Origin: an uncultured archaeon | Lineage (GTDB): Archaea > Aenigmatarchaeota > Aenigmatarchaeia > Aenigmatarchaeales > Aenigmatarchaeaceae | Reading direction: 5' to 3' | Assembly: GCA_964353745.1 (NCBI GenBank) | Contig: CAYGWD010000002.1 | Coordinates: 1-61,705 of the forward strand | DNA: 61,705 nt | Shown: in pieces, positions 9,335 to 48,088 of the stretch | Layout: each line of letters starts with the position of its first letter | How positions within the stretch are numbered: position 1 is the first letter of the stretch | Made by a program: the position numbers and the translations under genes | The notes under the pieces: model-generated | Databases searched by the model: none | Seen by the model: only the letters and a program-made list of their open reading frames with translations | Told to the model about the DNA's origin: nothing

Positions 9335-9359
9335 TTAATTCACCATTAGTTAGAAATTT

Positions 9360-9590: not shown

Positions 9591-9801
9591 AATTAAATTT
9601 TGTTTACAGAACTATTTTCTTGGAATTTTCCTCTCGTACCAAACTTTACAGCAATCTAGTTCATCCATGTCTTCAGTATGCAGTATTTCTCCTCTTTGTA
9701 CAGGTCCTGCTTTTTCGAATTTCTTTCCGATCCTTTCGCGAAATGTTTCACGATGTGAATAATTACTTTCCATAGATATATCATCTAAAGCTAATAAAAG
9801 A

Positions 9802-10413
9802 TTACATATACTTTTTCAATTCCTGCGATGTCAAGTCTCTATAACCGTTTTTATCAATGACTGCAATCTGTATTTCCTTTCCTCCGGATCCAATGTCCCT
9901 CTCGATCGCAGTCCTAATCGCTTTGATGATCAAGGCAATGGCTTCTTCGACTGTCATGCTTTCTTTGAATTCAGATTCCAAGACGCCGTAAGCAAAAGGA
10001 GAACCAGAACCAGTTGAATAAAACTTGTCCTTTACGTCAAATCCTCCCAAAGGATCGAATGAATATAAAACAGGTTGCTTGTCATAACCCGCCAGTATGA
10101 ATTGGTTCATGAAAGGATAATACTTTGAGCCTTGCAGTATGTTTGACAACAAGGTGGCAGCGCCCCTGATTGTTATGGGGCTTCTTTCTATTTTGTATAA
10201 TTTTAACTGAGCCTTCAAGATTCTGACTATTGCTAAAGCATCGCCAACCGAGCCCGCTATTGTCAGTCCTATGTGATCGTCTATCTGAAATATCTTCTGA
10301 GCTACTTTTGAGTCTACCATATATCCCATAGTGGATTTTTGTTCTGCGCCTATGACAACAGCGTCCTTTACGATTATACCAATGGTTGTTGTTCCTTTTT
10401 TTACATCCATCAT
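9802..10413 (-). CDS. psmB: proteasome subunit beta
   Basis: Short propeptide followed by the active-site TTTIGI; Ntn-hydrolase proteasome fold similarity throughout. Confidence 0.9.
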   Translation of the reverse strand: MMDVKKGTTTIGIIVKDAVVIGAEQKSTMGYMVDSKVAQKIFQIDDHIGLTIAGSVGDALAIVRILKAQLKLYKIERSPITIRGAATLLSNILQGSKYYPFMNQFILAGYDKQPVLYSFDPLGGFDVKDKFYSTGSGSPFAYGVLESEFKESMTVEEAIALIIKAIRTAIERDIGSGGKEIQIAVIDKNGYRDLTSQELKKYM

Positions 10414-10470
10414 TTCACCAGAAACTTCACAATTATCATAATTAATAATGAATATTTATAAAGGTTATGG

Positions 10471-14705: not shown

Positions 14706-14846
14706 ATGGTTAAACTTCAGCAGACAAAAGACGGTCAGTTTTTTATAACATTTCCTAAGGCTTTGGTTCAAGCTAAGAAGTGGAACAAAGGCCAGGTTCT
14801 TAAGATATCTTTTAATGAAAGAGGTCATCTAGAGATAGAAGATTAA
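14706..14846 (+). CDS. AbrB/SpoVT (MazE-like) domain protein, 46 aa
   Basis: MVKLQQTKDGQFFITFPKALVQAKKWNKGQVLKISFNERGHLEIED is a typical swapped-hairpin pattern. Below the ORF-track length cutoff; replaces the antisense ORF 14634..14828. Confidence 0.5.
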   Translation: MVKLQQTKDGQFFITFPKALVQAKKWNKGQVLKISFNERGHLEIED

Positions 14847-15331
14847 GGCTTCTTTTCCTTTAGAGCTATAGAAAAATTAGGATTCAATATCCACAGCCAT
14901 TTACCTTTCTTTAATGGATCATATCTTCTAGCTACTATACCTAGATTCTCCAAACTAAAGAGCATATTGTCTAAAGTATGATAGGAAGGAATTTTAAATC
15001 CTCTCTGCTTCAACAGTTTCTCACCAGATTTAGAGAGGTTTGGCATGAATATTATAAATGGTGGTTCTTTTTGTTTTTGTAAAGAATTTTTTGCATCTTC
15101 TTTTGGAACTGAAAGTTTTATTTTATACCTGTCAGTTAATTTAAAGATATATTTTACTCTTAATAGTTGTGTTGTTGCTGGGCTTTCCTTCAGAACATCA
15201 ATTATATCTTTTTCTACGTCTGTTAGAATGCTATCAAGAACATCAATATTATCAAGAAGTTTTTTAGATAGAGGAGTAGCTGAAATAGAAGCTGTTTCAG
15301 GTTTTTCTTGTTTATAGCCTTCAAATACCAT
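14843..15331 (-). CDS. hypothetical protein of the integrated element
   Basis: Open frame; ATG at 15331 preferred over the TTG at 15349. Confidence 0.4.
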   Translation of the reverse strand: MVFEGYKQEKPETASISATPLSKKLLDNIDVLDSILTDVEKDIIDVLKESPATTQLLRVKYIFKLTDRYKIKLSVPKEDAKNSLQKQKEPPFIIFMPNLSKSGEKLLKQRGFKIPSYHTLDNMLFSLENLGIVARRYDPLKKGKWLWILNPNFSIALKEKKP

Positions 15332-15336
15332 TTTAA

Positions 15337-15430
15337 CACCTTGCAACAATTTTCAACAACATATATTCTTTAGTATAGTATGTATTTAAATATGTTAGCC
15401 TCTTCTATTATATTGCAGGTTGTTGCAGGT
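15337..15430. promoter_or_regulatory. divergent promoter region with repeated TTGCAGGT operator-like boxes
   Basis: TTGCAGGT at 15413-15420 and 15423-15430 (10-nt spacing) and an inverted, imperfect copy ACCTTGCAA at 15338-15346. TATA-like TTTAAATA lies between. Confidence 0.35.
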
Positions 15431-15438
15431 AGCTATCA

Positions 15439-15582
15439 TGAAAAAACCAATAACAATAAGACTAAAGGAAGAAACTTTGGAGAGATTGCATAAAGTTAAA
15501 GAAGATACAGGAATTTCAATCCAAACTCTTTTAGAAAAATCTTTTGAGAGGTCTGAATTTTATGTTGAACAAAAAAATTGAT
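15439..15582 (+). CDS. ribbon-helix-helix (CopG/Arc-like) protein, 47 aa
   Basis: MKKPITIRLKEETLERLHKVKEDTGISIQTLLEKSF follows the beta-strand/helix/helix pattern. Confidence 0.5.
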
Positions 15583-15709
15583 AATCAAACTTTAGAATGG
15601 AGAGAGATCTGGTCGAAAATCACAGATGAAAAACCTTCTGAAGTATTAAAAATGTTAAGGGAGGCCACAAAACCAAAGGCCTCATAATTTCGAGATTGGG
15701 AGAATCTCT

Positions 15710-15982
15710 ATGAATAATGTAGTTGAGCAAACTAATATTAATGAAAAGAGAAAGTTTGATTTTTCTGAGATTGTCTATCAAAGGATAGCTAGTTATTTTA
15801 ATAATCAATTCTTAATCCAGCAACCGATAGAACATCGAACTCTAAGAAAGTATGTCTGTCGAGTTTTTAGGATAAGAAAGAAAGATTGTCAATTTCTATT
15901 TCGTGAGATGGATTCAAGAGGCCTATTGCATCTCAATTCAAGAGGCATTACGATTCTAAAAAAACAGGAGGCGATTGTGTGA
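15710..15982 (+). CDS. hypothetical (possible wHTH) protein
   Basis: Open frame in the element. Confidence 0.35.
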   Translation: MNNVVEQTNINEKRKFDFSEIVYQRIASYFNNQFLIQQPIEHRTLRKYVCRVFRIRKKDCQFLFREMDSRGLLHLNSRGITILKKQEAIV

Positions 15983-16064
15983 TAACAAAAATGTATGTGG
16001 TGAACACAGAGAAGATAGACCACGAAAAATTGCAGAGTTTTATCTTGAGTGGGTATGAGAAAAA

Positions 16065-16187
16065 ATGAAGAAAGAGGTTTGGAGAGTTTGTAATGATTGT
16101 GGCTATGAATTCACAGAAAATAGTAGATATTGTCCTAGCTGTGAATCTGAAGATGTAGGAGAGTTTGAAGATGAAACAACTGTTTAA
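16065..16187 (+). CDS. zinc-ribbon protein, 40 aa
   Basis: CNDCGY...CPSC pairs. Confidence 0.35.
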   Translation: MKKEVWRVCNDCGYEFTENSRYCPSCESEDVGEFEDETTV

Positions 16188-16258
16188 TCCTGATTGTTCC
16201 AGGTGTAAAAGGTTTTGGCTATTGAATTGTTCAGCCAATACTATCAGATGTAGAAAAT

Positions 16259-17551
16259 TTGTTAGAGTTGAAGTTTATGCCAAATGATTTGAAAGAATAT
16301 TTAACACAGGAAAGAATAGAGTTAGAAAAGACTCAAGATAATCCTGAGCTTATTGAAATGCTAGATGATTGGTTAGATGCTTCTAGTGAGCAAGAGATTT
16401 TAGAAAATCCTAACCTTTTAAATACTATTGTCAAAGAAATTAGCAAAAAAGTAGTCGGAGAAGAGGAAACAATCAAGACAATATTGTTATCTTGTTTTGG
16501 TTCAAAGGTCGAGAACCATCAGATAGCCTCTTATAATCTATTGATTAATTCTGAATCTGGAGCTGGTAAGGATTTTGTAGCGTATAACACGATACAGATT
16601 TTACCCAAAGAAACCTGGCTGAAGAGGACCAGGATAACTCCTAATGTCTTTACTTATTGGCATAACCCAAAGTTTGAGCCTGAATGGTCCTGGGATGGAA
16701 GAATTTGTTATCTTGAAGATATTTCTGATACTGTAATGAACGCTGAAGTTTTCAAAACTATGTGTTCTAGTGGTTCTAGTGCTACTGTCTTGATAAATCA
16801 GATACCGATAGATATAGAGATAAAAGGAAAACCTGTAATGGTCCTAACTTCTGCTAATGCCTCTCCCAATACAGAAGTTACTAGAAGATTTACTATTGTT
16901 AACTTGGATGAGAGTGTTAACCAAACAGAAGCTATCATGAAAAGACAGGCCAATCATGAAACTAACGGATTGGAAGTTGAATATAATAAAAATCTGACAA
17001 ATGCTTTGGCCAAACTGAAAAGAATAAAGGTAAAGATACCTTATGCTGAAGTTTTACCTGAATTTTTACCTAAGAACTCAATTATAATGAGAACTCATTT
17101 CCAAAGATTTTTAGATCTAATAAAATCTTCTTGTGCATTACATCAATATCAGAGAGTTCAAGACGAAAATGATTTTTATTTAGCTGATGGTCAAGATTAC
17201 GATATTGCTAGAGAGGTATTGTTGAAGCTAACTTCTAATCCTTTTATGATTCCTTTAACTCACAACGATAAGAAATTGTTAGAAATATTTGATGACCTAG
17301 TAGAACCTATTAGTGCTAAAGAGTTGGAAGCTAAGGTTAACTTTCTGTCAGTAGCTCAGATGTATAACTTACTCAACAAGCTATCAAAATATGGATTTTT
17401 AGAAAAAACTATAAAGGAGTATGAAGATAGCAGAAAAAATTCTACTGCATGGTTTAAATCGGATTCAATTAAAGTTAGTCCTTTAAAAATTCCAAAATGG
17501 TCTGAAATCAAAGAAAATCTGCTGAATAATAAGAATGGTCAGAATGATTAG
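16259..17551 (+). CDS. P-loop NTPase, putative replication (SF3-helicase-like) protein of the element
   Basis: Walker A SESGAGKD, Walker B-like ICYLEDISD; largest ORF of the element; followed directly by an iteron array. Confidence 0.45.
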   Translation: MLELKFMPNDLKEYLTQERIELEKTQDNPELIEMLDDWLDASSEQEILENPNLLNTIVKEISKKVVGEEETIKTILLSCFGSKVENHQIASYNLLINSESGAGKDFVAYNTIQILPKETWLKRTRITPNVFTYWHNPKFEPEWSWDGRICYLEDISDTVMNAEVFKTMCSSGSSATVLINQIPIDIEIKGKPVMVLTSANASPNTEVTRRFTIVNLDESVNQTEAIMKRQANHETNGLEVEYNKNLTNALAKLKRIKVKIPYAEVLPEFLPKNSIIMRTHFQRFLDLIKSSCALHQYQRVQDENDFYLADGQDYDIAREVLLKLTSNPFMIPLTHNDKKLLEIFDDLVEPISAKELEAKVNFLSVAQMYNLLNKLSKYGFLEKTIKEYEDSRKNSTAWFKSDSIKVSPLKIPKWSEIKENLLNNKNGQND

Positions 17552-17630
17552 AACAATAAGAATGATTAGAACGATTAGAATAATTCTAATGATTCTAATC
17601 GTTCTAATCGTTATTGGCCTCTAATCGTTC
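17546..17630. repeat. iteron-like array: 3 direct GATTAGAA(C/T) copies facing 4 inverted (A/G/C)TTCTAATC copies
   Basis: Direct copies at 17546, 17564 and 17573. Inverted copies at about 17584-17590, 17592-17600, 17601-17609 and 17619-17626. Confidence 0.65.
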
Positions 17631-17749
17631 TACTAACAGTAATTGATTAATAAAAAATGGTGTGAACATGGCTAAAAAAATAAGAATTGTTATTGTTGAA
17701 AACGAGTTAAAAGAGTTCCAGCTCGGTTTGAGACGTTTAATCCGACAGA

Positions 17750-17965
17750 TTGAGAAGGGAGTTTGAGATGAACGATAAATTATTGATAAACAGGCTGAAA
17801 AAATTGGATTTAATGATTTCAGCTCTTTTGAAAACTCTTAAGGAGCTGGGAGAAAATGAAAAGGAAACAAAGGAATTAACATCCTTTTCAATCAAACAAT
17901 CCAAGCTCTTTTTGAAAACATTTTATGGATCTGAAAGTCAAAAAAAATCTTCTGAGGGTTATTGA
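17750..17965 (+). CDS. hypothetical protein
   Basis: Open frame in the element. Confidence 0.3.
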   Translation: MRREFEMNDKLLINRLKKLDLMISALLKTLKELGENEKETKELTSFSIKQSKLFLKTFYGSESQKKSSEGY

Positions 17966-18209
17966 AATGAGATACTGTAAAACCTGTCAGGAATGGAGAG
18001 AAGATTTAAAGAACTGCCTTAGAAGGAATCATGATATAGATTGGAACAATTTCAGAGAGGATAAAGTTGGCATGGATGTATGCCTAAACGAATAAAACAC
18101 ATCAAAAGAATTCAATTTTATTATTTGTTATAAACATTACCTAACTGTTGTTTGTTGTTTCATTAATAATAGGATGTTAAAACAATACAATTTTTAGAGG
18201 TTGAGAAAA

Positions 18210-18392
18210 ATGCCAAGATTGATAAAACTAAATAAGTTTGGCAGTCTTTCAGTTGTAATACCTATTGGCATTGTAAGGTCTGCAAAGCTTCAAGCTGGAG
18301 AGGAAATGGATTTTGAGTTGATGAATGCCAAGCCTCTGGTTCTGAAATTGAAAAGAAAAGAAGAGCTGGAAAAAGACGAGTGGAGTCAATAA
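18210..18392 (+). CDS. AbrB/SpoVT-domain protein
   Basis: PRLIKLNKFGSLSVVIPIGIVRSAKLQAGEEMDFEL; ATG at 18210 preferred over the TTG at 18201. Confidence 0.5.
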   Translation: MPRLIKLNKFGSLSVVIPIGIVRSAKLQAGEEMDFELMNAKPLVLKLKRKEELEKDEWSQ

Positions 18393-18413
18393 AAAACTAA
18401 GGAGAATGATAAA

Positions 18414-18677
18414 ATGTCAAAGAAAACTGTTGGTTGTGATCCATACAGAACCGATGAAGAGAAAACTTTGAATTTCAAATTAAACAAGGCTGAACTGATA
18501 GCAATCGAGTCAGGCCTTCAAATGTTTGCTATAGAATGTAGAGATGATAAAAGCATGAGAGAATCAGTAGAAGATGCTCACTTTACTCTCAGGGATTTGA
18601 TAATACAGGAGCATGAGCAAAGGAAGGAAATCTCTAGCAAGGAATTAGAAGAAAAACAGGCTTTTGGTAGAGGATAA
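18414..18677 (+). CDS. hypothetical protein
   Basis: Open frame; stop overlaps the next start. Confidence 0.4.
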   Translation: MSKKTVGCDPYRTDEEKTLNFKLNKAELIAIESGLQMFAIECRDDKSMRESVEDAHFTLRDLIIQEHEQRKEISSKELEEKQAFGRG

Positions 18678-19138
18678 TGGCTGAATTAAAATCTTTGGCA
18701 GATTCAGAAAATGAAGTGATGCTCTCTAGAAAAGAGTTTGATTTCAAACTTGCTCTGATCTATCAGATAAATCGTATAGGTCAGTTGTCAGCTAGTGTTT
18801 TAAACATCAGTTCTGGTGATGCAGGTTTCAAGGAATATACTGATGAATTAAAGGTATTGTCAGCTTACTATCTGGAGAGTGCTATTTCTATTCTTGAAAA
18901 TATGTTAGCCTTCTATCTGGATGAAGAGGTAAAAAATAAATTAAAATATCTTGAAGCTGACTTTTTGTCTAGGCAGGATCATATAGATAAACAAGTTTTT
19001 GGAGGAACAGTATTTGGCTCTTACTACAATAGAAGAGATTATGCCTTGAGGAAATTTAGAATCCTGATGGAGTTCATGGGCAAGAAAGGTTTGTTATTAG
19101 AGGAGTTAGGAAATCTAGGAGAAGAAGGTTTGTTATAA
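18677..19138 (+). CDS. hypothetical protein
   Basis: Open frame, translationally coupled on both sides. Confidence 0.4.
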   Translation: MAELKSLADSENEVMLSRKEFDFKLALIYQINRIGQLSASVLNISSGDAGFKEYTDELKVLSAYYLESAISILENMLAFYLDEEVKNKLKYLEADFLSRQDHIDKQVFGGTVFGSYYNRRDYALRKFRILMEFMGKKGLLLEELGNLGEEGLL

Positions 19139-19929
19139 TGCCTAATGTTATTATCAGAGATATTCAAGACAAAATTCTAAACAAGAATCAAAACTTTATC
19201 TGTGCCATAGTTGGAGGCGTTGGGAAAGGTAAGAGTTATATCGGTTTGAGATGGTGCGAACTTATCTCTCCCAGGTTCAATCTTGATTATGTTGTATTCT
19301 CAGCCAAAGATTTTCTAGCTTTGGTCAATTCTGATAAGTTGAAAAAGGGAGATTCTATTCTTTGGGATGAAATGTCTGTTGATATGTATTCTAGGAACTT
19401 CATGGAACTTCAGAACAAATTAATAAACCATGTTCTAACAACTTTCAGAACTAAGAACATAGCCTTATTCTTTACAGCACCTTCTTTAAAATTCGTAGAC
19501 GTGGGAGTTGGTAGACTATGCCATGCTGTTATCGAGCCTGTATCTATCAACAGGGAAAGACAATCTAATATCTTCAAATTCAAATGGATACAGGCTAATC
19601 CTATCACAGGGAAAATAATATATCCTTTTCCTCACATAGTTTCTAAAGGTAGAATCAAAAGAATTGAACGAATGGAATATAAGAAATCTAAATTTGCTGA
19701 TGCTTATGAAATAAAGAGAAAGGAGTTTGCTAACAAGTTATCCAAATCAGTAGAGAAGGATATACTCAAAGCTGAATCATCCGAGAATAGAAAGAAGCAA
19801 ACTGATGAAGACATCATAGAATCAGGAATCAGGGAAGGTATTGATTGGAAGAAAACTAGAGATGTCTGTGCAAGGTTTAACATTCCAAGAGATAGAGCCT
19901 ATAGGATTCAATCTAAAGTGAGCATGTGA
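19138..19929 (+). CDS. P-loop ATPase (Zot/terminase/packaging-ATPase-like) with C-terminal HTH-like tail
   Basis: Walker A GGVGKGKS, Walker B ILWDEMS. Confidence 0.5.
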   Translation: MPNVIIRDIQDKILNKNQNFICAIVGGVGKGKSYIGLRWCELISPRFNLDYVVFSAKDFLALVNSDKLKKGDSILWDEMSVDMYSRNFMELQNKLINHVLTTFRTKNIALFFTAPSLKFVDVGVGRLCHAVIEPVSINRERQSNIFKFKWIQANPITGKIIYPFPHIVSKGRIKRIERMEYKKSKFADAYEIKRKEFANKLSKSVEKDILKAESSENRKKQTDEDIIESGIREGIDWKKTRDVCARFNIPRDRAYRIQSKVSM

Positions 19930-20010
19930 GAGAGAAGCATATCTTTCTTTCCTTATCTATTAAATTGATAATAGATTATAGAAGTATTAATATTAGCTAA
20001 CTTACTAACT

Positions 20011-21240
20011 TTATTTTGATTTGATTTCTTTCAGTTTGTTAGAAAAAGCTTTGCATAGATCAGGATATTCTTTCATCATTATCCTAACTGCTTCTTGCAT
20101 GGATATTATTTCTCTGCTTTCTTCATCCAAAGGCATGGCACAATTGCCACAGAATTTATTAGTCGGAGAGTTTGGAGTGTTGCATTTAGCACAAATAATA
20201 TAATCTAATGCTCTGTCTATGCTGGTTGTCTTTTGCTTCAGGCCTTTCTTTTCAAGCATTACATCGTCTATATCCTTTGCTGATAAGCTGATGTATATCT
20301 CAGGCATACGAGAGCTTCCTGTCCATCCAGCAAACTTTTTCAACCAAGATTCTTGATAGCCTTCTCTTGCTAATTCAGTTAGCCTAGAATGTCTAAACAG
20401 ATGTGGATGAACTCTTTTTCTTATCTCTGTTCTTTTAACAGATAGTCTTATCATTCTGTAAATTCCAGCAATAGTTAATCTGTTTCCATAATCCTTTTTA
20501 GAAAGACATATGAACATAGGAGAATCTGGATTGTCTTTGTAAGGATGGTTGTTTATCCATTCCTTCAATATCAAAGCTGAGTCTATAATCCTAATCTTTC
20601 TTTGGCCTGTCTTTCCAGAGACAGATAGAACATAACCAAAGTTATCAGAGACAGCATCCTTTATGCTCAAGTTGGTTATCTCTCCAATACGACAAGCTGA
20701 TTCATAGAGAAGCAATATGATTGCCTTGTCTCTCAAGTTATCAGTTCTGTTTGCTATCGTCAAAATTTCTTCCTTTGTCAATAGCTGGTCTGCTGGTAAG
20801 TGATTATTATTTCCTCTTCTCAAACTGATCCATTCGACAACATCAGGATAACCTTTTTTCATCTTATAGTATTTTTGAAAGAATATCTTGATTGTTGTTT
20901 TTCTTCCTATCTTTGTTGGTTCTGATAGCTTATCTATAGATAATAGGTAGCCTTCAACATCCTTTCTTGTTATCTTTTTCAAAGGCTTCCTTACTTTTAG
21001 AAAGAACAATCTTAATACAATCAGATAATTCCTTCTTGAAGATAGAGTTAATGATTTCAATACATTATCCTTATCAAATTCTCTCAAGGCTTCCAAGTGT
21101 TCAGGCAGTATTTTTTCTGATTCCTTCAGCTTCTCTGCATCTTCTCTAAGGATATTTCTCCTATCAAAAGTAGTGTTGGATAGCATGGTCTTTATATGAT
21201 TCTCCAGCTTCTCTGCATCTTTATTAATTTTTGCATCCAT
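20011..21240 (-). CDS. tyrosine recombinase/integrase with C-terminal double zinc ribbon
   Basis: HPHLFRHSRLT (HxxR), catalytic Tyr region MPEIYISL, SAM-like N-domain, CAKCNTPNSPTNKFCGNC. Confidence 0.85.
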   Translation of the reverse strand: MDAKINKDAEKLENHIKTMLSNTTFDRRNILREDAEKLKESEKILPEHLEALREFDKDNVLKSLTLSSRRNYLIVLRLFFLKVRKPLKKITRKDVEGYLLSIDKLSEPTKIGRKTTIKIFFQKYYKMKKGYPDVVEWISLRRGNNNHLPADQLLTKEEILTIANRTDNLRDKAIILLLYESACRIGEITNLSIKDAVSDNFGYVLSVSGKTGQRKIRIIDSALILKEWINNHPYKDNPDSPMFICLSKKDYGNRLTIAGIYRMIRLSVKRTEIRKRVHPHLFRHSRLTELAREGYQESWLKKFAGWTGSSRMPEIYISLSAKDIDDVMLEKKGLKQKTTSIDRALDYIICAKCNTPNSPTNKFCGNCAMPLDEESREIISMQEAVRIMMKEYPDLCKAFSNKLKEIKSK

Positions 21241-40534: not shown

Positions 40535-41500
40535 TCATACCCTTAGCTTATTTATTTCATCCAATTGTAAAATAGAGACGGTTAAACTTTTTATTAGTTT
40601 TTTGTTGCCGTATTTTACAATTGTTTTATTATCTTTTGCGTCAGAGTATCTGGCGGTCAACTGAGCCGCTTTCTCAATCGAGTCGTTTTTCTTAGGGCCT
40701 TGCAGGATTGTCAAGGGACTCCCTATGTCAGGAACTTCAAAGATGTAGTCTGTTCTTTGTTTTAACTCTAGCAACTTTTTGTTTTCTTCCTCGTTCCTGC
40801 CAACGATTATCTTGTTGTTCTTGTATCGGAAGTGCCTGCCTACCTTTAAGATTTCTAAATCTTCTTTCCTTATATTCTTCTTATGCATCAACAGGTCCCT
40901 GGTCTTATTGGCAAACTCCCTGTAAGTTAACAGGCAACCGCCAGCAGGTGAAGGGTACTCTTTTATTCCAAACTTCCTTGCCAATTTGAATTGCCTTTCC
41001 CTTTTCCTGCCGCTGATATCAAGCAGCCTGTTTCTATCAACCCATTTTTTCTCAGCCTCTGTTATTGGAAGCAGCTTGGCTGACAGAGGCCTTAGCAATC
41101 TTCCCTTCAAACCAGCTTCCTTCTCTATCAATTCCAAAGCATTCTTGTTCTGACTCATTGGCCTTTCTCCAAGAACCTCTCCTGTAAAAATGAATTTTGC
41201 TCCAATCTTTTTTGCATAATTCTTTGCTTTTTTAAACATGAATATCTTGCAGTCTATGCAAGGGTTCATCTCAGATCCATAGCCATGCTTGGGTTTCCTT
41301 AACATCTTCAGATAGTCTTTGGTAACGCCAATTTCCTTTAATGGAATTTTTATTTGCTCTGCCATTCTAATTGCATTTTTAGGCGGAAAGAAAGGCGTAT
41401 AGAAATTTACTAGTTCAACTTCTATTCCTTGTTCTTGAATCAGTTTTGCGGCTATTATAGAATCCAAACCGCCTGAAAACAAGCCTAACGCCTTAATCAT
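40535..41500 (-). CDS. PP-loop ATPase (ThiI/MnmA-like tRNA thiolation family)
   Basis: FSGGLDS PP-loop, CIDCK, GEVLGERPMSQ, AGGCLLT. Confidence 0.65.
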   Translation of the reverse strand: MIKALGLFSGGLDSIIAAKLIQEQGIEVELVNFYTPFFPPKNAIRMAEQIKIPLKEIGVTKDYLKMLRKPKHGYGSEMNPCIDCKIFMFKKAKNYAKKIGAKFIFTGEVLGERPMSQNKNALELIEKEAGLKGRLLRPLSAKLLPITEAEKKWVDRNRLLDISGRKRERQFKLARKFGIKEYPSPAGGCLLTYREFANKTRDLLMHKKNIRKEDLEILKVGRHFRYKNNKIIVGRNEEENKKLLELKQRTDYIFEVPDIGSPLTILQGPKKNDSIEKAAQLTARYSDAKDNKTIVKYGNKKLIKSLTVSILQLDEINKLRV

Positions 41501-41527
41501 AATAGAGATTGCTTTTGATAATTTTAA

Positions 41528-41561
41528 AAATGATGCGCTAGTTCAAATCCTGCCCTCCGCA
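41528..41561 (+). repeat. tRNA 3'-end-like repeat, copy D
   Basis: AAATGATGCGCTAGTTCAAATCCTGCCCTCCGCA. The downstream GATGTTCTTC is shared with copy A. Confidence 0.7.
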
Positions 41562-41643
41562 CATCTGATGTTCTTCGCTAATTGACATGTAGAATGGCAA
41601 TAAGCATTTAAAGATTATTTTCTTATTTAATAAAACTGATTAA

Positions 41644-42114
41644 ATGACTACACTTTATACACTTGACATGGATTTGATAGACAGAAGTAAGGAGAACAAC
41701 CCTTCATTACATAAGATATATGTTCTAGAAAATCCTGAGAATCCTTGGAAAGATGAATGTAATGAGATTGCTAAAATGAAAAACGATTTGCAAAAATCTA
41801 GATTGTTGCAAAGAAGTCATTATGGAACTTTTGTTTGTCACTCTGATTTAGGTGGTGGCTATACTCTTTTGTCCGAATTTAATCCAAAAAATTATTTCTT
41901 GAAATTGCCTATACTTCTTAGAAACATCAACTTAGAAACACCAAAATTGCATGAAAGAGCATTTCCTATTGCTTCTGAAGCTAATATAGTGCCTTCACTG
42001 AATATTGCAGGAAGTGCTATTGCCAGCTTTGATCAAGAAATATTATTCGAGCAGGGTCCAGAAGCTTTTAGGGAAGAATGGTATCCTGAAACTGTGTTTA
42101 AAATTAAAAAATAA
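41644..42114 (+). CDS. hypothetical protein
   Basis: Open frame. Confidence 0.4.
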   Translation: MTTLYTLDMDLIDRSKENNPSLHKIYVLENPENPWKDECNEIAKMKNDLQKSRLLQRSHYGTFVCHSDLGGGYTLLSEFNPKNYFLKLPILLRNINLETPKLHERAFPIASEANIVPSLNIAGSAIASFDQEILFEQGPEAFREEWYPETVFKIKK

Positions 42115-42139
42115 ATAATAGTAAATACAAATTCATAAG

Positions 42140-42517
42140 ATGATAGAGATACGAAAAGTAAGTGCTGACTCGAGAGGAAAACTGTTTGTTCTAAACGAGG
42201 ATGGCGTGGAATTTGCTCACATAGCCACAATAAAAAAGGGCGCATCCAGAGGCGGGCATTTTCACACCAAACCTGAAAAAATAATTGTCCTAGACGGGGA
42301 AGTGGAGTGCTGGCTCGCAAGGACCGAGAACAAAAACAAAGAAACAAAAGGTTCTCTGCACGAAGGCGAGGCTTTGGTAGTGGAGGCAGGAGCGGCCCAT
42401 CTGCTAAAAGCAAAAACAGACTCTGTAATAATAGGAGTTATAGGCGAGGCCGAGACGACCAACTACGAGCCTTACAGAAAAGTGGTTGAGGAATTTCTAG
42501 CTAAAGACAGCTCGTAA
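42140..42517 (+). CDS. cupin-fold protein (WxcM/FdtA-like)
   Basis: DSRGKLFVL...ASRGGHFH...IIVLDGEV. Confidence 0.55.
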   Translation: MIEIRKVSADSRGKLFVLNEDGVEFAHIATIKKGASRGGHFHTKPEKIIVLDGEVECWLARTENKNKETKGSLHEGEALVVEAGAAHLLKAKTDSVIIGVIGEAETTNYEPYRKVVEEFLAKDSS

Positions 42518-42575
42518 AAGATAAGAATTTAAATCTAATTTTATAATTATTTTTTAGTAGTAAAAATGTGATGCC

Positions 42576-43097
42576 ATGAGAGAAATTGTGGAATCCTTAA
42601 AGAGAGCTTTGGAGAAGAAAGATTTCTATAGAACTGTTGAAAAGACAGGAGAACTTTTCGTAAGAGGTATGGGTTACTCTCTTGTTGAAGAATTTGATCC
42701 TGTAGCTAACAGTGCTGAAAAAGCTTTGTCAGGCCGTTTTCCTAAAACATCTGTAAAATCTTTCAAGGGAACCCTTAGGGAAGCTTATCAAGAACCTATC
42801 GGTAGTTCTCTCAATGTTAGTCACTATGCAAATCCTTCAGCAGAAAAAACTGAAGGGTCTGTTTGTAGCATATGCTATTATGGCGGATACCCAGACGCTC
42901 TTAAACTGAGTAAAACAGAATTCTTTCCTTATGGTGTTCTGTGGACAGAAGCTCTTCCTAGCAAGGAACAATTCCCAAGCAGCCAAATACAGCACGTAGA
43001 AATACTGAAACTGCCGAAAACTCAATTTATTCAACTGAACTCTGAAGAATTTTTAGAAGCTATTGAAAAAGTCTTTGAAAAATCAAAAAATAAATAA
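42576..43097 (+). CDS. hypothetical protein
   Basis: Open frame. Confidence 0.4.
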   Translation: MREIVESLKRALEKKDFYRTVEKTGELFVRGMGYSLVEEFDPVANSAEKALSGRFPKTSVKSFKGTLREAYQEPIGSSLNVSHYANPSAEKTEGSVCSICYYGGYPDALKLSKTEFFPYGVLWTEALPSKEQFPSSQIQHVEILKLPKTQFIQLNSEEFLEAIEKVFEKSKNK

Positions 43098-43117
43098 TTC
43101 TAGAAACAATTTCTAGC

Positions 43118-43297
43118 ATGGAAATTTTTTCTTCTGATACGGCATCCTTATGCGCGAAATGCAAGGGTAGGCTATGGTGTGGCAAGGACGGATGTCCTAT
43201 TCTTGTCAAGTTCTATACGCAGACAAAAGTCAAACCATTGATAGACTCGACATACATGGAAGGTTCTTCACCACCCTCAGTATTCATTAACCTCTAA
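43118..43297 (+). pseudogene. 5' fragment (59 codons) of an Nre-like gene, duplicate of the start of 45630..46856
   Basis: CAKCKGRLWCGKDGCPILVKFYTQTKVKPLIDSTYMEGSSPPSVFI aligns with CALCKGRLWCGKGRCSLLIKFYSYTKAKPLIDSTMLSGSSPPSCFI; it then diverges and stops. Confidence 0.7.
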
Positions 43298-43355
43298 GCG
43301 TTAAGTTTAAATCTCTTTACTTCTTAGTAATAATTGATAAAAAATAAATCAAAAT

Positions 43356-44129
43356 ATGATTGTTATGAATCAACTGACAACATATGTTATGCCGGAACCT
43401 CGCGTAAAGATTGTAGGCAGAGAATTTGGATTTGTAGGACAAGCTATTCCTGTAGAGGTTGAAGGCAACGTATTAGATTATCTAAGAGCAGCTGGCGTAT
43501 ATAATTCTGATGCGGATGTCCACAACGACTATGTTCATTTTGACGATAAATTTTCTGTGTCAGAAAGATTAGGAGAAGTTGATGAAGTATTAGCTATAAT
43601 TGATGGACCTAGACTGAAAAAAGATTTGGAGAGAAAGGGACATGCATTTTTGATGGCTAAAGGAGATGCCGGCAAGTTCAGAGATGATAAGGACAAAGGA
43701 TTTATAACATGCATAAACAGAGTAATTGAGGATTTAGTTTATCAGAAAATACCTAAAGAACTTAAGTTAGATTCTGAAGTAAGACATCTAAAATTGCAGG
43801 AGGCAGTTGAGCTAATGCTTTCTGACAAAGAAGTCAGAGATACAATGTGTGATTATTGGCAGAAAAATTTAGAAGTTTTTATTAGTTTATATAAACCAAA
43901 CAAGTCTTCTTATACATCGAAAGATGGGAAATTAGATATTGTACAAACTGAATCTGAATCTTTAAGTCCACTTATGGCTGCTTCTGTTGGGTCTAGGTGG
44001 AACGATTCCTATCCTCATCGTCGTCCCGTTGCTGGTACAGGCGGGTTGATAGGTAGGTCGGAAAATGGATCGTTGTACGGTTATGGCTCTACTGTCGCCA
44101 GTTTGAAAATGTCTCAAGTAAAAGAATAA
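43356..44129 (+). CDS. hypothetical protein (cargo of the LAGLIDADG cassette)
   Basis: Open frame. Confidence 0.45.
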   Translation: MIVMNQLTTYVMPEPRVKIVGREFGFVGQAIPVEVEGNVLDYLRAAGVYNSDADVHNDYVHFDDKFSVSERLGEVDEVLAIIDGPRLKKDLERKGHAFLMAKGDAGKFRDDKDKGFITCINRVIEDLVYQKIPKELKLDSEVRHLKLQEAVELMLSDKEVRDTMCDYWQKNLEVFISLYKPNKSSYTSKDGKLDIVQTESESLSPLMAASVGSRWNDSYPHRRPVAGTGGLIGRSENGSLYGYGSTVASLKMSQVKE

Positions 44130-44416
44130 AAAAATTGTTTTCTAAAATAAATTATGCAAGAACATTCTTTCCTTCTCTTCAAGTTAGAGGAGACTTGAGA
44201 ATATTCTATGATTACAAACTTCCAAGAAAAAGCAACATGGGAAAGTTTGAAAAGAAGTTAAGATACTAATTAAATATTATAAGGAAAATAAAATTACTAA
44301 AGAAAAATTAATGAAATCAGTAGAAAGATGGTTTGCTCATGCTAAATGTGGAAACATATATAAATATAGAAAAAATTTATGAAAATAATAAATAATACCA
44401 CCAACAATATTTAGTT

Positions 44417-45652
44417 ATGGGTAATGGGATTGTTAGTCTTTGGTCCTTACCAGAAGATAAAATTTATTTAGGTTTGGAAAAAGAATTCAAAGAAAAAATT
44501 TTCAATTCAGCAAAAGAATATGCAGGAACATGGGACAATCTTGGTAAAGAACTTAATTTAAAGGTAAATAAGTACGGTAATTGCAAAATTATAGAAAGTG
44601 CAAGATGTAAAAGATTTAGTCTTTCATTACTCAATAAAATTATAGATTATTTGAATTCTAAGGGTATAAGCATAGATAAAAGCCTCATAGAAAGAAAGGT
44701 AAATGTTATTTCTTCTAAACGTGGAGGATCGAACAAATTGGCTAACAGCATTTTCAATCCAAAATTGCCTTTTAATTTCGATACAATTGATGGGTCTACT
44801 GTAATATCCTCTATTTTTCACGATGGTGGAATCAATAGTAGAAGATTGCCTCATTACAGTAATCCTGAGAATCTAGAGTTAAGGCAAAAAGTTTACAAAG
44901 CTTTTACAAACGTTTTTGGAGAATTTGTGTCTAAAAAGAGCAATCCTATAGAAAATCAACAGTTATACTTTCCAAAAATAGTTGGGATTGTTCTAACTTA
45001 TGGATTAGGCATACCTTGTGGGAGAAGAGTTATAAACAATCCATCTATTCCTGAATTCATATTTAATTCTTCAGATGATATCAAATCAGCATTCATTCAA
45101 CAAGCTTTTGATGACGAGTCTCATGTTCATAGAACTGAGAGAAATATAAGCTTGAAATTATCGTCCGGATCAAAAAATCCTTCAAGCCTCATCATTGGCA
45201 TAAAAGACCTTTTAGAGGATTTGGGAATAGAGGCTAGCGGTCCTCATTATATCGATTACTATGAAACCAAAAAAAGTGTCAGAGCTTACAGATGGTATAT
45301 ATTAATAACACACCAGGATAATCTAAAAAGGTTCTATGAGAAAGTAGGGTTTCATTCGGCATACAAGCAAAAGAGACTTCAAGAGATAGTTCAGACCATC
45401 AAATGCCATCATTATTCTACTAAGAAAACGCATGAAATATATCAAATTGCTTGTAGAAATCTCCAAAAAAGATATGAATTTATAACCAGTAGAGAACTTG
45501 CTATAGAGTTAGGTAGGAGTCAAGAATTAGCCAAGAAAATTATTCAGAAACTTGTGAACAATAAAATTCTATTAGTTAAAGAATGCCGTCATGGAAACAG
45601 AGGAGCTAAATATGTTTTAGGTGATAAACATGAATCAGTGTGCATTGTGTAA
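44417..45652 (+). CDS. free-standing double-motif LAGLIDADG homing-endonuclease-like protein with C-terminal wHTH
   Basis: VISSIFHDGG and AFIQQAFDDES motifs ~92 aa apart; C-terminal ITSRELAIELGRSQELAKKIIQKLVNNKILL; stop overlaps the nre start by 23 nt. Confidence 0.65.
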   Translation: MGNGIVSLWSLPEDKIYLGLEKEFKEKIFNSAKEYAGTWDNLGKELNLKVNKYGNCKIIESARCKRFSLSLLNKIIDYLNSKGISIDKSLIERKVNVISSKRGGSNKLANSIFNPKLPFNFDTIDGSTVISSIFHDGGINSRRLPHYSNPENLELRQKVYKAFTNVFGEFVSKKSNPIENQQLYFPKIVGIVLTYGLGIPCGRRVINNPSIPEFIFNSSDDIKSAFIQQAFDDESHVHRTERNISLKLSSGSKNPSSLIIGIKDLLEDLGIEASGPHYIDYYETKKSVRAYRWYILITHQDNLKRFYEKVGFHSAYKQKRLQEIVQTIKCHHYSTKKTHEIYQIACRNLQKRYEFITSRELAIELGRSQELAKKIIQKLVNNKILLVKECRHGNRGAKYVLGDKHESVCIV

Positions 45653-46856
45653 AGGTAGATTATGGTGTGGAAAAGGTCGTTGCTCACTTTTGATTAAGTT
45701 TTACTCTTATACAAAAGCAAAACCTCTCATTGATTCAACCATGCTTAGCGGTTCGAGCCCTCCATCGTGCTTTATTGGTTCCTACGGCTATCCCAAGGTA
45801 TTCGTAGGTCCAATGCTTCCTCCTCAACACGGCGATACGAGCATAATGGACACGCCTGAACTATGGGCTAACAAATCAATACAAGAGATAGTTGACTTTA
45901 GATTCCAGTTGGTGAGAGGAAAATACCTGACCAACATAAAGAATTTTGATGGAAAGATAGTTGAGATAACAAGAGAAATAGCTCTTGCAGAGAATTCGCC
46001 AGACGCGGAGGTCGAGTTCAAGACGAAACCCACTGGAAGAATTATTCTAAATGACGAGGTCCAACCATTCGGTCCTTCTGCATCAATGATTAAACTAGAT
46101 GTGGGAAATTATACGTACAATAAGAGAGTGGAAAAAGCGTTTTATGATACTGATTTGAAAGCCAAGGATGCTGTCATTAATTTGTATAAGGATGGTTTGC
46201 TGGTCTCTAAGATACAGAAAGCATTTTCAGTCGGCGCCTTTGGCTTGGAAAAGAACAGGAAATTCGTTCCAACTCGTTGGAGCATTACTGCTGTTGATGA
46301 TACGTTAGGTAAGAATATGATTGAATACACCAAAACCTATCCTATAATAAATGATTTCAAAATTTATGAGCATAACCAACTAGACAATAAATGGATTGTC
46401 CTTATGATTCCGAGGGAATGGTCTTACGAATTGATAGAGGCTTGGTATCCAAAGACATTGTGGAATCCTGATAGCGTGAGAACAGAGATTTTTTCTGACC
46501 ATGAATTTTATGACGGTAGAAAGACTTATGCAGAGATAGGCGGATGTTACTATGCAGCCAGACTTGCGGCCAACGAGTTGTTGAACAAGGAGAGAAGACA
46601 GGCAGGAGTCGTAATAATGAGAGAGGCTCATCCAGGATACATCATGCCCGTAGGAGTGTGGAATGTGAGGGAAGCCGTCAGACAGGCCGTTAAAAAGGAA
46701 CCAATGAGTTTTTCAACTTTGAACGAGTCACTAGCATATATCTCTAAGAAGATGGATATTCCTGTTAAGAAATGGATAGAGCATAGTGCTGTATTGAGAG
46801 ACACTCTGCAGCAAAAAAGATTGGTAGACTTTTTGAAGGTGAAAGAATGGAAGTAA
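45630..46856 (+). CDS. nre: Nre-family (archaeal DNA-repair-associated, DUF650/651-like) protein
   Basis: N-terminal CxxCKGxxWCGxxxC, ~408 aa; the family call is from memory of the N-terminal Cys motif and size. Confidence 0.5.
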   Translation: MNQCALCKGRLWCGKGRCSLLIKFYSYTKAKPLIDSTMLSGSSPPSCFIGSYGYPKVFVGPMLPPQHGDTSIMDTPELWANKSIQEIVDFRFQLVRGKYLTNIKNFDGKIVEITREIALAENSPDAEVEFKTKPTGRIILNDEVQPFGPSASMIKLDVGNYTYNKRVEKAFYDTDLKAKDAVINLYKDGLLVSKIQKAFSVGAFGLEKNRKFVPTRWSITAVDDTLGKNMIEYTKTYPIINDFKIYEHNQLDNKWIVLMIPREWSYELIEAWYPKTLWNPDSVRTEIFSDHEFYDGRKTYAEIGGCYYAARLAANELLNKERRQAGVVIMREAHPGYIMPVGVWNVREAVRQAVKKEPMSFSTLNESLAYISKKMDIPVKKWIEHSAVLRDTLQQKRLVDFLKVKEWK

Positions 46857-47641
46857 AAGAAGTAAAATGCAAGACGATAATGAGCAAGTCAGGGCTTCAT
46901 GACAGCGATTTTTCTATAAACCCATACAGGGGCTGCGAGCATAATTGCTTTTATTGTTACGCTCCCTTTGTGCTCAGAGAGAAGAGGCCATGGGGTACAT
47001 TCCTCGATGTCAAGACCAATGCAGCTGACGTCTTATCCAGAGAGATCTTGAAGAACAAGAGCGGAAACATTCTGATAAGCAGTGTCACAGACCCTTACCA
47101 GAGCTTAGAGAAGAAGTACAAGATAACTAGAGAATTGCTGAAGAAATTAAACAAGAATTTCTTTGTTTCAATACTGACCAAATCTGCTTTGGTCCTAAGG
47201 GATTTGGATTTGTTCAGGAAATTGAACTGCGAGGTCGGCATGACAATAACTACCCTAGACGATAATATAGCAAAAATATTCGAGCCCAATTCTTCTCCTC
47301 CCGAGGAAAGGCTTGATGCTTTGAGTTACATCAAAGTTTCAGGCATAAAGACTTACATATTTTTCGGTCCTCTGTTGCCTTTCATGAGCGATGTTAATCT
47401 AGAGAAATCAATCAGCAGGTTTTCAATGGCAAAGCCTGACAAAATATACGTTGATAAATTAAACATAAAAAGAAAGGACCATTGGGAAAAGATTAAAGCT
47501 GCGCTTGCGGCCAATTATCCTGACATGGTTGACAAGTGGGAAAAGGTTCTGTTTTCCGAGAATGATTATTATGAAAAGTTGAAGCAGCGGATAGTAGAAT
47601 TGTTCCAGAAATATGATTTGAAATACGAGTTATGCTATTAA
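46847..47641 (+). CDS. radical SAM protein (SplB / DNA-repair-photolyase-like, COG1533-type)
   Basis: CEHNCFYCYA cluster near the N-terminus, ~264 aa; overlaps the nre stop. Confidence 0.6.
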   Translation: MEVKEVKCKTIMSKSGLHDSDFSINPYRGCEHNCFYCYAPFVLREKRPWGTFLDVKTNAADVLSREILKNKSGNILISSVTDPYQSLEKKYKITRELLKKLNKNFFVSILTKSALVLRDLDLFRKLNCEVGMTITTLDDNIAKIFEPNSSPPEERLDALSYIKVSGIKTYIFFGPLLPFMSDVNLEKSISRFSMAKPDKIYVDKLNIKRKDHWEKIKAALAANYPDMVDKWEKVLFSENDYYEKLKQRIVELFQKYDLKYELCY

Positions 47642-47689
47642 GTTCACTTTCAAATTCGAGTAAAATAGTTAGATTTAAATCCTTAACTG

Positions 47690-48088
47690 ATGAACTTATT
47701 TTTCATGGAAGAACGTTTGTATAGTGCATTGGACGTTTTTAGAGGAAACGACTTGGTAGAGATGGACTTGACAGTACCTTCTGGGAAGGAAAATGAAGTT
47801 AAAGGCATGCTATATGACATGTCAGGCACAAAGAATGGAATGTTCCAGAATGGTTGTTGGCAGTCAAAAAACCCTCAGACTAATACAGTCACTTTTTGGT
47901 CTCCAACTCTAACAGTAGAAAAAGCAAAAATAATATGTAAAGATTGCCCAGAATACGTTGGAATAAAGTTAAGCGCTGTTTATCCTGTCGGTTCCGAAGA
48001 AGCTGTTTACGAAGGGCCATTAACATTGGCTAGAAAAGAGTTCAGGTCTCTTCAGAGAAAGTTTAGGAAATTGATAGGAAAGACCTAG
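47690..48088 (+). CDS. hypothetical protein
   Basis: Open frame. Confidence 0.4.
   Translation: MNLFFMEERLYSALDVFRGNDLVEMDLTVPSGKENEVKGMLYDMSGTKNGMFQNGCWQSKNPQTNTVTFWSPTLTVEKAKIICKDCPEYVGIKLSAVYPVGSEEAVYEGPLTLARKEFRSLQRKFRKLIGKT

Follow-up and report, generated by a model that had tools for sequence, protein, structure and literature searches.

In a 61,705-nucleotide (nt) stretch of DNA from an uncultured archaeon of the Aenigmatarchaeota (contig CAYGWD010000002.1; this whole stretch is hereafter the window), the nre gene overlaps a gene for a free-standing LAGLIDADG protein with a C-terminal winged helix, and upstream of that gene lies a second, displaced nre 5′ end, which we call the stump. 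We propose, with a probability of roughly 80%, that the LAGLIDADG gene belongs to an element docked on nre which spreads by cutting empty, that is uninterrupted, nre alleles and swapping their 5′ end. The features on which this proposal depends are listed here, with L numbers denoting the loci compared.

43085..43116, + strand: A+T-rich, TATA-like sequence just 5′ of the stump ATG, conserved upstream of the fragment in three loci
43118..43297, + strand: stump, the displaced native nre 5′ end, 57 nre codons followed by Asn-Leu-stop (amino acid and nucleotide identity to the live 5′ end, Pfam Nre_N, intact alleles)
43118..43266, + strand: stump codons 1-49, apparently derived from the recipient; end of the 1,163-nt stretch of near-identity to the empty-site contig L031
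43267..43288, + strand: stump codons 50-57, derived from the donor, the left co-conversion tract (identity 0.50 to L031 and 0.92-0.96 to L038/L034)
43289..45785, + strand: net inserted DNA, 2,497 bp compared to an uninterrupted nre (empty alleles run ...SSPPSVF(I/V) straight into GR(W/F)NYPKV)
43306..43338, + strand: TATA-like junction element TTTAAATCTCTTTACTTCTTAGTAATAATTGAT between the stump and the first cargo gene, conserved in the window, L010 and L002
44417..45652, + strand: gene for a free-standing two-motif LAGLIDADG protein that has a helical domain at the N-terminus and a winged helix at the C-terminus (Pfam, motif alignment, structure model, Foldseek)
45620..45625, + strand: GGTGAT within the endonuclease open reading frame (ORF), resembling a Shine-Dalgarno sequence and separated by 4 nt from the nre ATG, read from the sequence
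45630..46856, + strand: live, chimeric nre, 408 aa from the ATG at 45630 (Nre_N plus Nre_C, NreA model)
45630..45785, + strand: element-borne substitute nre 5′ end, codons 1-52, "B-type" (30-nt window identity to L001)
45786..45866, + strand: right co-conversion tract in live codons 53-80, which contain the junction variant GSYGYPKV (identity steps against L031; intermediate to all comparators)

Two different nre 5′ ends at one locus

The stump is an ORF of 59 aa, and when its residues 12-57 were aligned to residues 7-52 of the nre ORF, 33 of 46 were identical (72%, E 4e-22); the stump alone matches positions 2-38 of Pfam Nre_N (E 2.7e-7). This similarity is far above background and bears out the first-pass annotation of the window, made from the letters alone, which had described a 5′ copy of nre about 70% identical in protein, diverged in DNA and ending at the same residue. 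Homology ends in both copies after ...SSPPS(V/C)FI, where the stump continues with NL-stop, and both carry the motif CxxC-x5-C-x4-C. The DNA that encodes these aligned residues (138 nt) is only 59% identical between the two, with differences at 35 of 46 third positions, which makes the copies old relatives and not the products of a recent local duplication.

The relatives of the two copies lie in different alleles. The stretch of the stump from Cys4 to GSSPPS is 100% identical in amino acids to the intact nre of L031, L036 and L028; stump codons 12-49 are 0.97 identical to the DNA of L031, and the stump is 0.96-0.97 identical in nucleotides to L031/L036. Codons 1-50 of the live gene, on the other hand, are 0.93-1.00 identical in 30-nt windows to L001, an allele that carries the LAGLIDADG gene (0.80 in the 30-nt window from codon 51), but only 0.47-0.63 identical to the empty alleles L031/L036, and in protein the live 5′ end has its closest counterparts in L001 (95%) and L010 (84%), both of them LAGLIDADG-bearing alleles. 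Further into the live gene this is reversed. Codons 81-280 are mostly 0.9-1.0 identical to the empty allele L036, with 0.80-0.87 in 3 of 20 windows, whereas their identity to L001 is 0.50-0.97 and falls to 0.50-0.77 from codon 211. The live nre is thus a chimera in which an L001-like 5′ end sits on an L031/L036-like body, and the earlier suggestion of an endonuclease-associated insertion that displaces the native 5′ end and brings a new one is upheld, since the stump is of the intact-allele type and live codons 1-50 are of the L001 type. The nre of L001 (7214-9613) is itself a second mosaic: up to residue ~135 it is 93-100% identical to that of the window and beyond ~210 just 33-73%. The radical SAM gene nearby is 97% identical and is separated from nre by an additional gene, which encodes a 402-aa HTH_5 protein.

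The live gene carries a complete Nre_N (E 1.6e-94) and Nre_C (E 1.4e-41) in Pfam, as befits Nre, the PCNA-associated DNA-repair protein of archaea, which has about 400 aa and an optional Cys4 domain at its N-terminus; its ORF is called from a GTG at 45621 but the biological start is the ATG at 45630. The stop of the endonuclease gene (45650-45652) overlaps this ATG by 23 nt, and this overlap, together with the GGTGAT before the ATG, implies that nre would be co-transcribed with the endonuclease gene and translated downstream of it. Transcription of nre from the element is further supported by the 32 nt before the endonuclease ATG, which are 78% like the 32 nt before the stump ATG. It has been reported that the N-terminal Cys4 domain of Nre is not universally conserved and is dispensable in some lineages (PMC4929162), and the occupied alleles L009 and L013 are without it; both fit with a 5′ end of Nre that tolerates replacement.

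Upstream of the stump, the sequence AATAAATAATTCTA...TTCT is conserved in an alignment of the window, L010 and L002, and the A+T-rich sequence at 43085..43116 is probably the native promoter or leader of nre. After the stump, TTTAAATCTCTTTACTTCTTAGTAATAATTGAT is conserved in the same three loci though the ORFs downstream of it have diverged or are different, which indicates that the three have a common left junction of the element. The first-pass annotation had called the fragment dead. This holds only in part: the start codon, the promoter-like upstream sequence and the open frame are all kept, because the insertion is recent.

Empty alleles and the bounds of the insertion

A degenerate DNA pattern specific for the fragment-type ("A-type") nre 5′ end was used to find alleles in metagenomes. 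It gave 17 loci, 15 of which continue into a whole nre without a LAGLIDADG gene, the other two being the stumps on the L002 and L010 contigs. The empty alleles are L026-L029 and L031-L041, and L043-L047 are further empty loci from genomes, so that the uninterrupted nre which a synteny comparison was to look for was found many times. The first allele of the empty type came from a protein search by word index with the 59-aa fragment, which gave two candidates and is unsuited to counting alleles; one of them, P0026 at the syntenic locus L025, has an N-terminus that runs into ...VFVGRFNYPKVFVGPMIPPQHGDTS and has no endonuclease. The A-type nre of L025 (4162-5340) has an in-frame stop and lacks ~22 codons after ...PPQHGDTS, ~20 codons past the presumed cut site, and is called as two genes of 78 and 288 aa; this lesion may be a repair scar or a decaying gene.

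When the window was compared to L031, positions 42104-43266 (1,163 nt, comprising a cupin gene, a 173-aa ORF and stump codons 1-49) were 98.3% identical in DNA, and the cupin and 173-aa proteins differed from their L031 counterparts by 1 and 4 residues, respectively. At stump codons 50-57 the identity to L031 drops to 12 of 24 nt (0.50), and these codons match other A-type alleles instead, L034 at 0.96 (23/24) and L038 at 0.92. On the right side, the live gene is 0.60 identical to L031 over the first ten codons past the junction, ~0.85 over the next twenty and 0.93-1.00 from A-type codon 88; the L031 locus reaches just to nre codon ~125. Occupied and empty alleles are thus found together with co-conversion of the flanks as in homing elements, with breakpoints at stump codon 50 and about live codon 80. 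From these breakpoints and the chimeric live gene, the window appears to hold an L031/L036-like nre that received 2,497 bp by recombination, with ~8 codons converted on the left and ~30 on the right. Judged by the same sequence comparisons the insertion is recent, the recipient L031-like and the element L001-like.

The GC content of the insert, 0.328, is below that of the DNA on its two sides (0.374 and 0.400). It is not bounded by terminal repeats, be they inverted or direct, and no transposase or integrase is present between 43289 and 45785, so it does not qualify as a transposon, insertion sequence or integrase island. No Rfam family matches positions 41000-48000 at E up to 1. A group I, group II or bulge-helix-bulge intron was considered and rejected, as the live gene is complete without splicing and joining the stump to it would duplicate 50 codons.

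The LAGLIDADG-winged-helix protein

The 411-aa product of the gene at 44417..45652 matches Pfam LAGLIDADG_3 over the cutoff (E 4.7e-6). In an alignment of 18 homologues, D136, G137 and G138 of motif 1 (..IFHDGGI) and Q229 and D232 of motif 2 (..QAFDDE..) are invariant. The AlphaFold2 (AF2) model of the protein has a mean predicted local distance difference test (pLDDT) score of 89 and a predicted template modelling (pTM) score of 0.81, and its Foldseek matches are the TliVMA intein endonuclease (6e-9), PI-PfuI, WhiA, I-Tsp061I and PI-SceI. The pseudo-dimeric alpha-beta-beta-alpha-beta-beta-alpha fold is present in this predicted model (Foldseek 7qsu, 1dq3, 2dch, 1dfa and 3hyj, E 6e-9 to 2e-3), and the C-terminal 60-70 residues match MarR/ArsR winged helices. 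Motifs and modelled fold together predict a single-chain, two-motif LAGLIDADG homing endonuclease. Profile, motifs and fold agree with what had been read from the letters, namely a 411-aa two-motif LAGLIDADG protein with a C-terminal winged helix whose gene overlaps nre by 23 nt, and the profile search proposed at that time did recover LAGLIDADG homology.

The protein has no Hint or intein match in Pfam and is encoded independently of nre, from an ATG to a stop codon that belong to its ORF alone and in another frame, so it does not qualify as an intein. Its NCBIfam matches cover just the endonuclease part of intein-containing proteins. One of its homologues carries the annotation "LAGLIDADG family homing endonuclease".

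Association of the endonuclease gene with nre in other loci

The word index gave 17 homologues of the endonuclease, and with a profile search 219 or more clusters (50% identity) were obtained at E<=1e-30, nearly all of them stand-alone proteins of ~400 aa. All the relatives that were placed in context, down to 44-46% identity, lie directly upstream of nre. These loci (L001, L002/L003, L004/L011, L010, L009, L005/L012, L013, L014 and L123) span Aenigmatarchaeota, Micrarchaeota and unclassified archaeal metagenome-assembled genomes, and their neighbourhoods are unrelated. The distribution of the endonuclease gene is patchy, as it is present in only 1 of 80 nre loci retrieved from species-representative genomes (the L004 genome), most of the 80 being outside Aenigmatarchaeota.

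The layout of stump, cargo, endonuclease and nre recurs in independent assemblies (L010/L042, L002/L003/L030 and L014). In L010 the stump is intact and is followed by a homologue of the 257-aa cargo protein described below, in L002/L003/L030 it has one frameshift, and in L014 it has an in-frame stop. In L123 a short ORF piece at ~1830-1900, just upstream of a 56%-identical LAGLIDADG gene, reads MSSALCALCKGAKM... and is like the first Nre Cys pair; by this likeness it may be a much shorter stump. The nre downstream of that LAGLIDADG gene (3130 onward) reads GVFCGSFGYPKI.

Relatives of ~30% identity were seen with 4-nt overlaps directly 5′ of other genes: in L006 (4255-5867) of a PIN_9 gene in an rpoE-spt4-S24e operon, in L017 (6980-8529) of a small ORF inside an S19-L22 ribosomal-protein operon, and in L019 (6710-8718) of an RtcA-like gene. 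L006 has in addition a second LAGLIDADG_3 ORF of 478 aa (9219-10655). Stumps were looked for beside these distant relatives in L006, L017 and L019 and none was detected.

The junction and its predicted role

Across the junction, every occupied allele in the clade of the window (Nre identity of 63% or more) has SSPP(S/A)CF(I/V)GSY(G/N)YPKV, whereas nearly all empty alleles read SSPPSVF(I/V)G(R/K/H)(W/F/Y)NYPKV. The empty junction of the L031 type is ...GGTTCCAGCCCGCCTAGTGTTTTTGTTGGCCGTTGGAACTATCCAAAAGTT, for example CCGCCTAGTGTTTTTGTTGGCCGTTGGAACTATCC, and the live junction of the window is ...GGTTCGAGCCCTCCATCGTGCTTTATTGGTTCCTACGGCTATCCCAAGGTA. The codon differences that are fixed between empty and occupied alleles, GTn to TGC, aga/cgt to TCc, Tgg to TAc and AAc to GGc, flank the insertion point. 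The core SPPSVF(I/V)GR is kept across the other archaea sampled, and the residues after it vary. The conserved A-type junction is probably the recognition and cleavage site of the endonuclease and the copy borne by the element is probably resistant; the substitutions predicted to give this immunity are V to C, R/K/H to S and W/F to Y.

The mechanism that we propose runs as follows. The endonuclease would cut an empty nre near codons 55-60, in ...SSPPSVF(I/V)|GR(W/F)NYPKV, and the break would be repaired from an occupied allele, its right end pairing with the nre body and its left end with the stump of the donor. That the stump may serve as the left homology arm is suggested by the crossover at stump codon ~50. 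Everything between the arms would be copied in, that is, the cargo genes, the endonuclease gene and the divergent substitute nre 5′ end, the last of which would restore the full reading frame and bring the SCFIGSY junction that should be safe from cutting. The promoter and first 57 codons of the recipient would be stranded upstream and the live nre would then be expressed from the transcript of the endonuclease. The first stump could have arisen by an illegitimate event, a one-sided invasion followed by end joining. The sequences themselves show the architecture, the specific association with nre, the empty sites and the presence/absence polymorphism, the chimeric live gene, the short conversion tracts, the junction variants and the conserved catalytic motifs; the cleavage activity and its site, the immunity, the repair pathway and the first stump-making event are all steps that we infer from them.

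Several observations weigh against this proposal. The endonuclease-free alleles L032, L050, L051 and L093 also have G-S-(Y/F) at the junction (VFCGSYGYPKV, VFCGSFGYPKI, VFVGSYNYPKV), so the junction variant is not strictly tied to the endonuclease; these may be resistant alleles from which the endonuclease has since been lost. Both the target site and the resistance of SCFIGSY alleles are predicted solely from where homology and identity break, and the role of the stump as left arm from a single crossover, that in the window. Occupied alleles without a stump are several (L001, L004/L011, L005, L009 and L013) and therefore a stump is not required for persistence. The comparators are all metagenome contigs from mosaic, recombining populations, in which likeness to a given contig holds just locally: identity to L031 falls from 98.3% to 89.8% further left, and across window positions 41644-42104 there is no homology. 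Finally, the lasting residence of the gene beside nre could reflect a beneficial or regulatory role.

This last point leads to a different explanation, domestication, in which the LAGLIDADG-winged-helix protein would act as a WhiA-like regulator or as a partner of Nre, its gene would be passed on vertically in an operon with nre and would not move, and the stump would be the scar of one old rearrangement. WhiA, a transcription factor of LAGLIDADG plus helix-turn-helix (HTH) build, is indeed among the best structural matches, the gene is full-length and well conserved in homologues with identities between 91% and 44%, in each case abutting nre, and several of the loci are syntenic. We consider this explanation unlikely, however, because the gene is present or absent between stretches of DNA that are locally 98% identical and the conversion tracts are bounded, the live nre is chimeric, most close relatives are without the gene, and the association with nre holds in unrelated neighbourhoods. 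WhiA is a vertically inherited regulator and WhiA-type proteins have lost the acidic motif residues, which are invariant in the family described here. A secondary benefit of the endonuclease gene to its host may exist all the same.

It was also considered that the 59-codon fragment is alive, a mini-gene maintained because it encodes a free-standing Cys4 zinc-ribbon peptide. Its ATG, its open frame and the conserved TATA-like sequence upstream of it are in favour of this, and the stumps of the window and L010 differ at 28 nt that are split 6/2/20 by codon position, with 56 of 59 amino acids identical, while the genes adjoining them are just 53-80% identical. This third-position bias looked like purifying selection, but the mini-gene was dropped as the main explanation when intact alleles with the same sequence were found. 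Codons 1-49 have a simpler history in a working nre until lately (97-98% nucleotide identity to intact alleles and 100% amino acid identity to three of these), and the bias would arise because most of each stump was in a working gene until recently; moreover, the fragment has a frameshift in L002/L003 and a stop in L014 and is absent in L001, L004, L009 and L013. A selected mini-gene is thus distinctly improbable. We give hardly any credence to a local tandem duplication of the nre 5′ region with later divergence, or to a chimeric metagenome assembly. Two copies of a 50-codon segment do lie 2.5 kb apart on the same strand in DNA whose source is evidently an uncultured archaeon, but the copies are saturated at synonymous sites (35/46 third positions), each is near-identical to a different outside allele (the stump to L031/L036 and the live copy to L001), and at least three other sets of contigs, which come from different samples and were assembled independently, have the layout as well. 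Homing into nre with replacement of its 5′ end remains the reading that we prefer.

Cargo and neighbouring genes

The DNA between the stump and the endonuclease gene, and the gene that follows nre, contain these further features.

43356..44129, + strand: 257-aa cargo gene of an Aenigmatarchaeota-specific family (8 homologues)
44195..44382, + strand: decayed 3′ remnant of a group-II-intron-like reverse transcriptase (RT) gene (tblastn to the L010 RT)
46847..47641, + strand: radical SAM gene overlapping the nre stop, context outside the element (Pfam Radical_SAM; syntenic in L001, L002 and L010)

The radical SAM (SplB-like) gene has been reported to be linked with nre (PMC4929162). The 257-aa ORF had been taken for an orphan, which it is not: its 8 homologues (46-99% identity) are all in Aenigmatarchaeota-type sequences and some are at unrelated loci, family members away from nre being those of L021 and L023, beside a GARS gene or Mre11/Rad50. 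The protein has no match in Pfam, PADLOC or NCBIfam, its AF2 model is poor (pLDDT 61) and has no match in PDB, and it is not similar to the 238-aa ORF in the same position in L002. That it is the diverged rest of a second nre was rejected, since it has neither similarity to Nre nor a family match.

The ~290-nt stretch between the 257-aa gene and the endonuclease gene, described earlier as decayed ORF scraps, is decayed as stated, and its identity can now be added, as it contains the 3′ remnant of an RT gene that is intact in L010. When the L010 RT was used in tblastn, its residues 284-304 (71% identical) and 307-344 (61%) were found in two frames of the window, and window positions 44195-44420 are 76% identical in nucleotides to L010 5777-6004, the 3′ end of the RT gene. 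The window is without L010 4514-5776 (1.26 kb), which holds the RT-16 RNA and the first ~280 codons of the RT. In L010 and L020 the 257-aa homologue is followed by the RT-16 RNA (Rfam RF03019; 70.6 and 57.2 bits, respectively) and then by an RT of 355-358 aa. This conserved module of 257-aa family, RT-16 RNA and group-II-intron-like RT occupies L010 3738-5998 and L020 5992-8260, with RTs that are 64% identical. In both loci a LAGLIDADG gene of 405-411 aa comes directly after the RT module, but the two proteins are unrelated by BLASTP and L020 is without nre. The module may be an RT system of three parts that has come to lie next to endonuclease genes more than once; a literature search on RT-16 gave no relevant account. 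In L020 an RtcB-like gene (9380-10964, − strand) converges on the LAGLIDADG gene and is split in two overlapping ORFs that are uncalled in the source record, which may be a frameshift or a pseudogene.

The kae1 locus and other observations in the window

The first-pass annotation had compared the nre locus to kae1 in the same window, where it saw the same three-part layout and an endonuclease-like protein of the same domain order. At 2076-3503 there is indeed a 475-aa ORF, with a weak LAGLIDADG_3 match and a C-terminal HTH-like region, that ends where the N-terminal coding of kae1 begins and so is likewise docked at the 5′ end of a gene. However, no displaced kae1 5′ copy was found upstream of 2076 by tblastn with the Kae1 of a relative and with the N-terminal part of the window's own Kae1, so that the shared layout could not be sustained, and the 475-aa protein has no detectable pairwise similarity to the nre-side endonuclease, so that membership in one family is not demonstrable. 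The argument from two independent occurrences is replaced here by the nre layout in independent assemblies and by the empty sites.

The N-terminus of Kae1 is itself split by frame within 3481-3620: KTFCLGIEGTA is encoded at ~3497-3535 and NTFGVGIADDKGNILANEKSMYKPP... in the next frame from ~3551, with ~16 extra nt (CTAGTTTGCCTGCAGA) between the two pieces, and the called ORF (3611-4492) starts at Kae1 profile position 16. The kae1 start region folds as a long hairpin (−24.3 kcal/mol, z −1.8) that contains a 4-bp helix and a bulge of 3 nt, with a geometry unlike that of a canonical bulge-helix-bulge. A frameshift, a sequencing error, a very small intron or decay to a pseudogene could each account for the split.

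Elsewhere in the window, 20011-21240 (− strand) encodes a tyrosine integrase with a C-terminal zinc ribbon, adjoining Mre11/Rad50 genes. It is preceded by ORFs without family matches, of which 16259-17551 weakly matches the MCM P-loop, and the region 14843-21240 may be an integrated element.

Comparison with known systems and meaning

The closest parallels are the "gene hybrids" made by mobile ORFs (mORFs) in fungal mitochondria, described for atp6 of Allomyces macrogynus and for atp6, atp9, cox2 and nad3 of Glomus (PMC3630166), with partial cob and atp6 duplications in Endoconidiophora (PMC6279837). There, as here, the host gene has received, together with a free-standing LAGLIDADG (or GIY-YIG) gene, a foreign version of one of its ends, which is joined in frame so that the gene stays working, and the native end is displaced yet recognisable. 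The native fragment is 91-98% identical in nucleotides to near relatives in Glomus and 97-98% in the window, and the inserted copy has 64-81% identity in the fungi (PMC3630166) and 59% in the window. The window has the partial host-gene duplication with the foreign copy in frame, as the live gene has Nre_N and Nre_C, and its native fragment groups with close relatives (L031/L036) and its inserted copy elsewhere (L001/L010). The polarity is reversed, however. The fungal elements replace the 3′ end and have their ORF downstream of it, whereas in the window it is the 5′ end that is replaced, with the start codon and translation signals, and the endonuclease gene lies upstream and overlaps the new start; the element would thus be a mirror image of the fungal hybrids. 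Unlike these it is in a DPANN archaeal chromosome and not in an organelle, its displaced piece keeps the native promoter so that expression of the live gene must come from the element, and it has extra cargo, the 257-aa gene and the RT module.

Free-standing homing endonucleases of T4-like phages and cyanophages are known for "intronless homing", in which the gene lies beside its presumed target and spreads by recombination with co-conversion of the flanks. The endonuclease gene of the window likewise lies beside and not inside the presumed target gene, but the phage enzymes are mostly GIY-YIG or HNH, are intergenic and are not known to carry a duplicate of part of the target or to leave a stump, whereas here the insertion point is in coding sequence. 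The LAGLIDADG enzymes of inteins and archaeal introns (TliVMA, PI-PfuI, PI-SceI and I-Tsp061I) are the best structural and profile matches and share two motifs in one chain and archaeal hosts. The window element differs from them in having no splicing domains, no fusion to the host protein and no intron RNA in 41-48 kb, and its host gene is whole by virtue of the substitute 5′ end. With WhiA the protein shares the fold of a degenerate homing endonuclease followed by a C-terminal HTH, but its acidic residues are invariant and its gene is polymorphic among near-identical alleles. A literature search for an archaeal or DPANN precedent gave just organelle, phage, intein and candidate phyla radiation rRNA cases.

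End-replacing free-standing homing endonucleases are known almost only from fungal mitochondria, and there at the 3′ end. In the present case, public metagenomes contain both empty and occupied alleles with a local identity of 98%, from which the cleavage site and the immunity substitutions can be predicted and conversion tracts of ~8 and ~30 codons delimited. The displaced 5′ end also explains why annotation may list a short "Nre_N" protein beside a full nre. If active, the endonuclease would be a new natural meganuclease scaffold with an extra winged-helix domain. The finding shows a route by which DPANN core genes can turn mosaic and unrelated cargo can move between lineages. A broader and rather doubtful possibility, which we offer tentatively, is that the LAGLIDADG-winged-helix family represents a general kind of gene drive in archaea. 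It would settle at the 5′ ends of conserved genes, which are nre in the window and, in relatives, an RtcA-like gene, the PIN_9/rpoE operon and a ribosomal-protein operon. On this view it captures their expression, swaps their first codons between lineages and carries RT/RT-16 cargo, with the stump as its left arm and possibly an expressed zinc-ribbon peptide. If this were true, it would be an unrecognised route of horizontal transfer and of 5′-end turnover of DPANN core genes.

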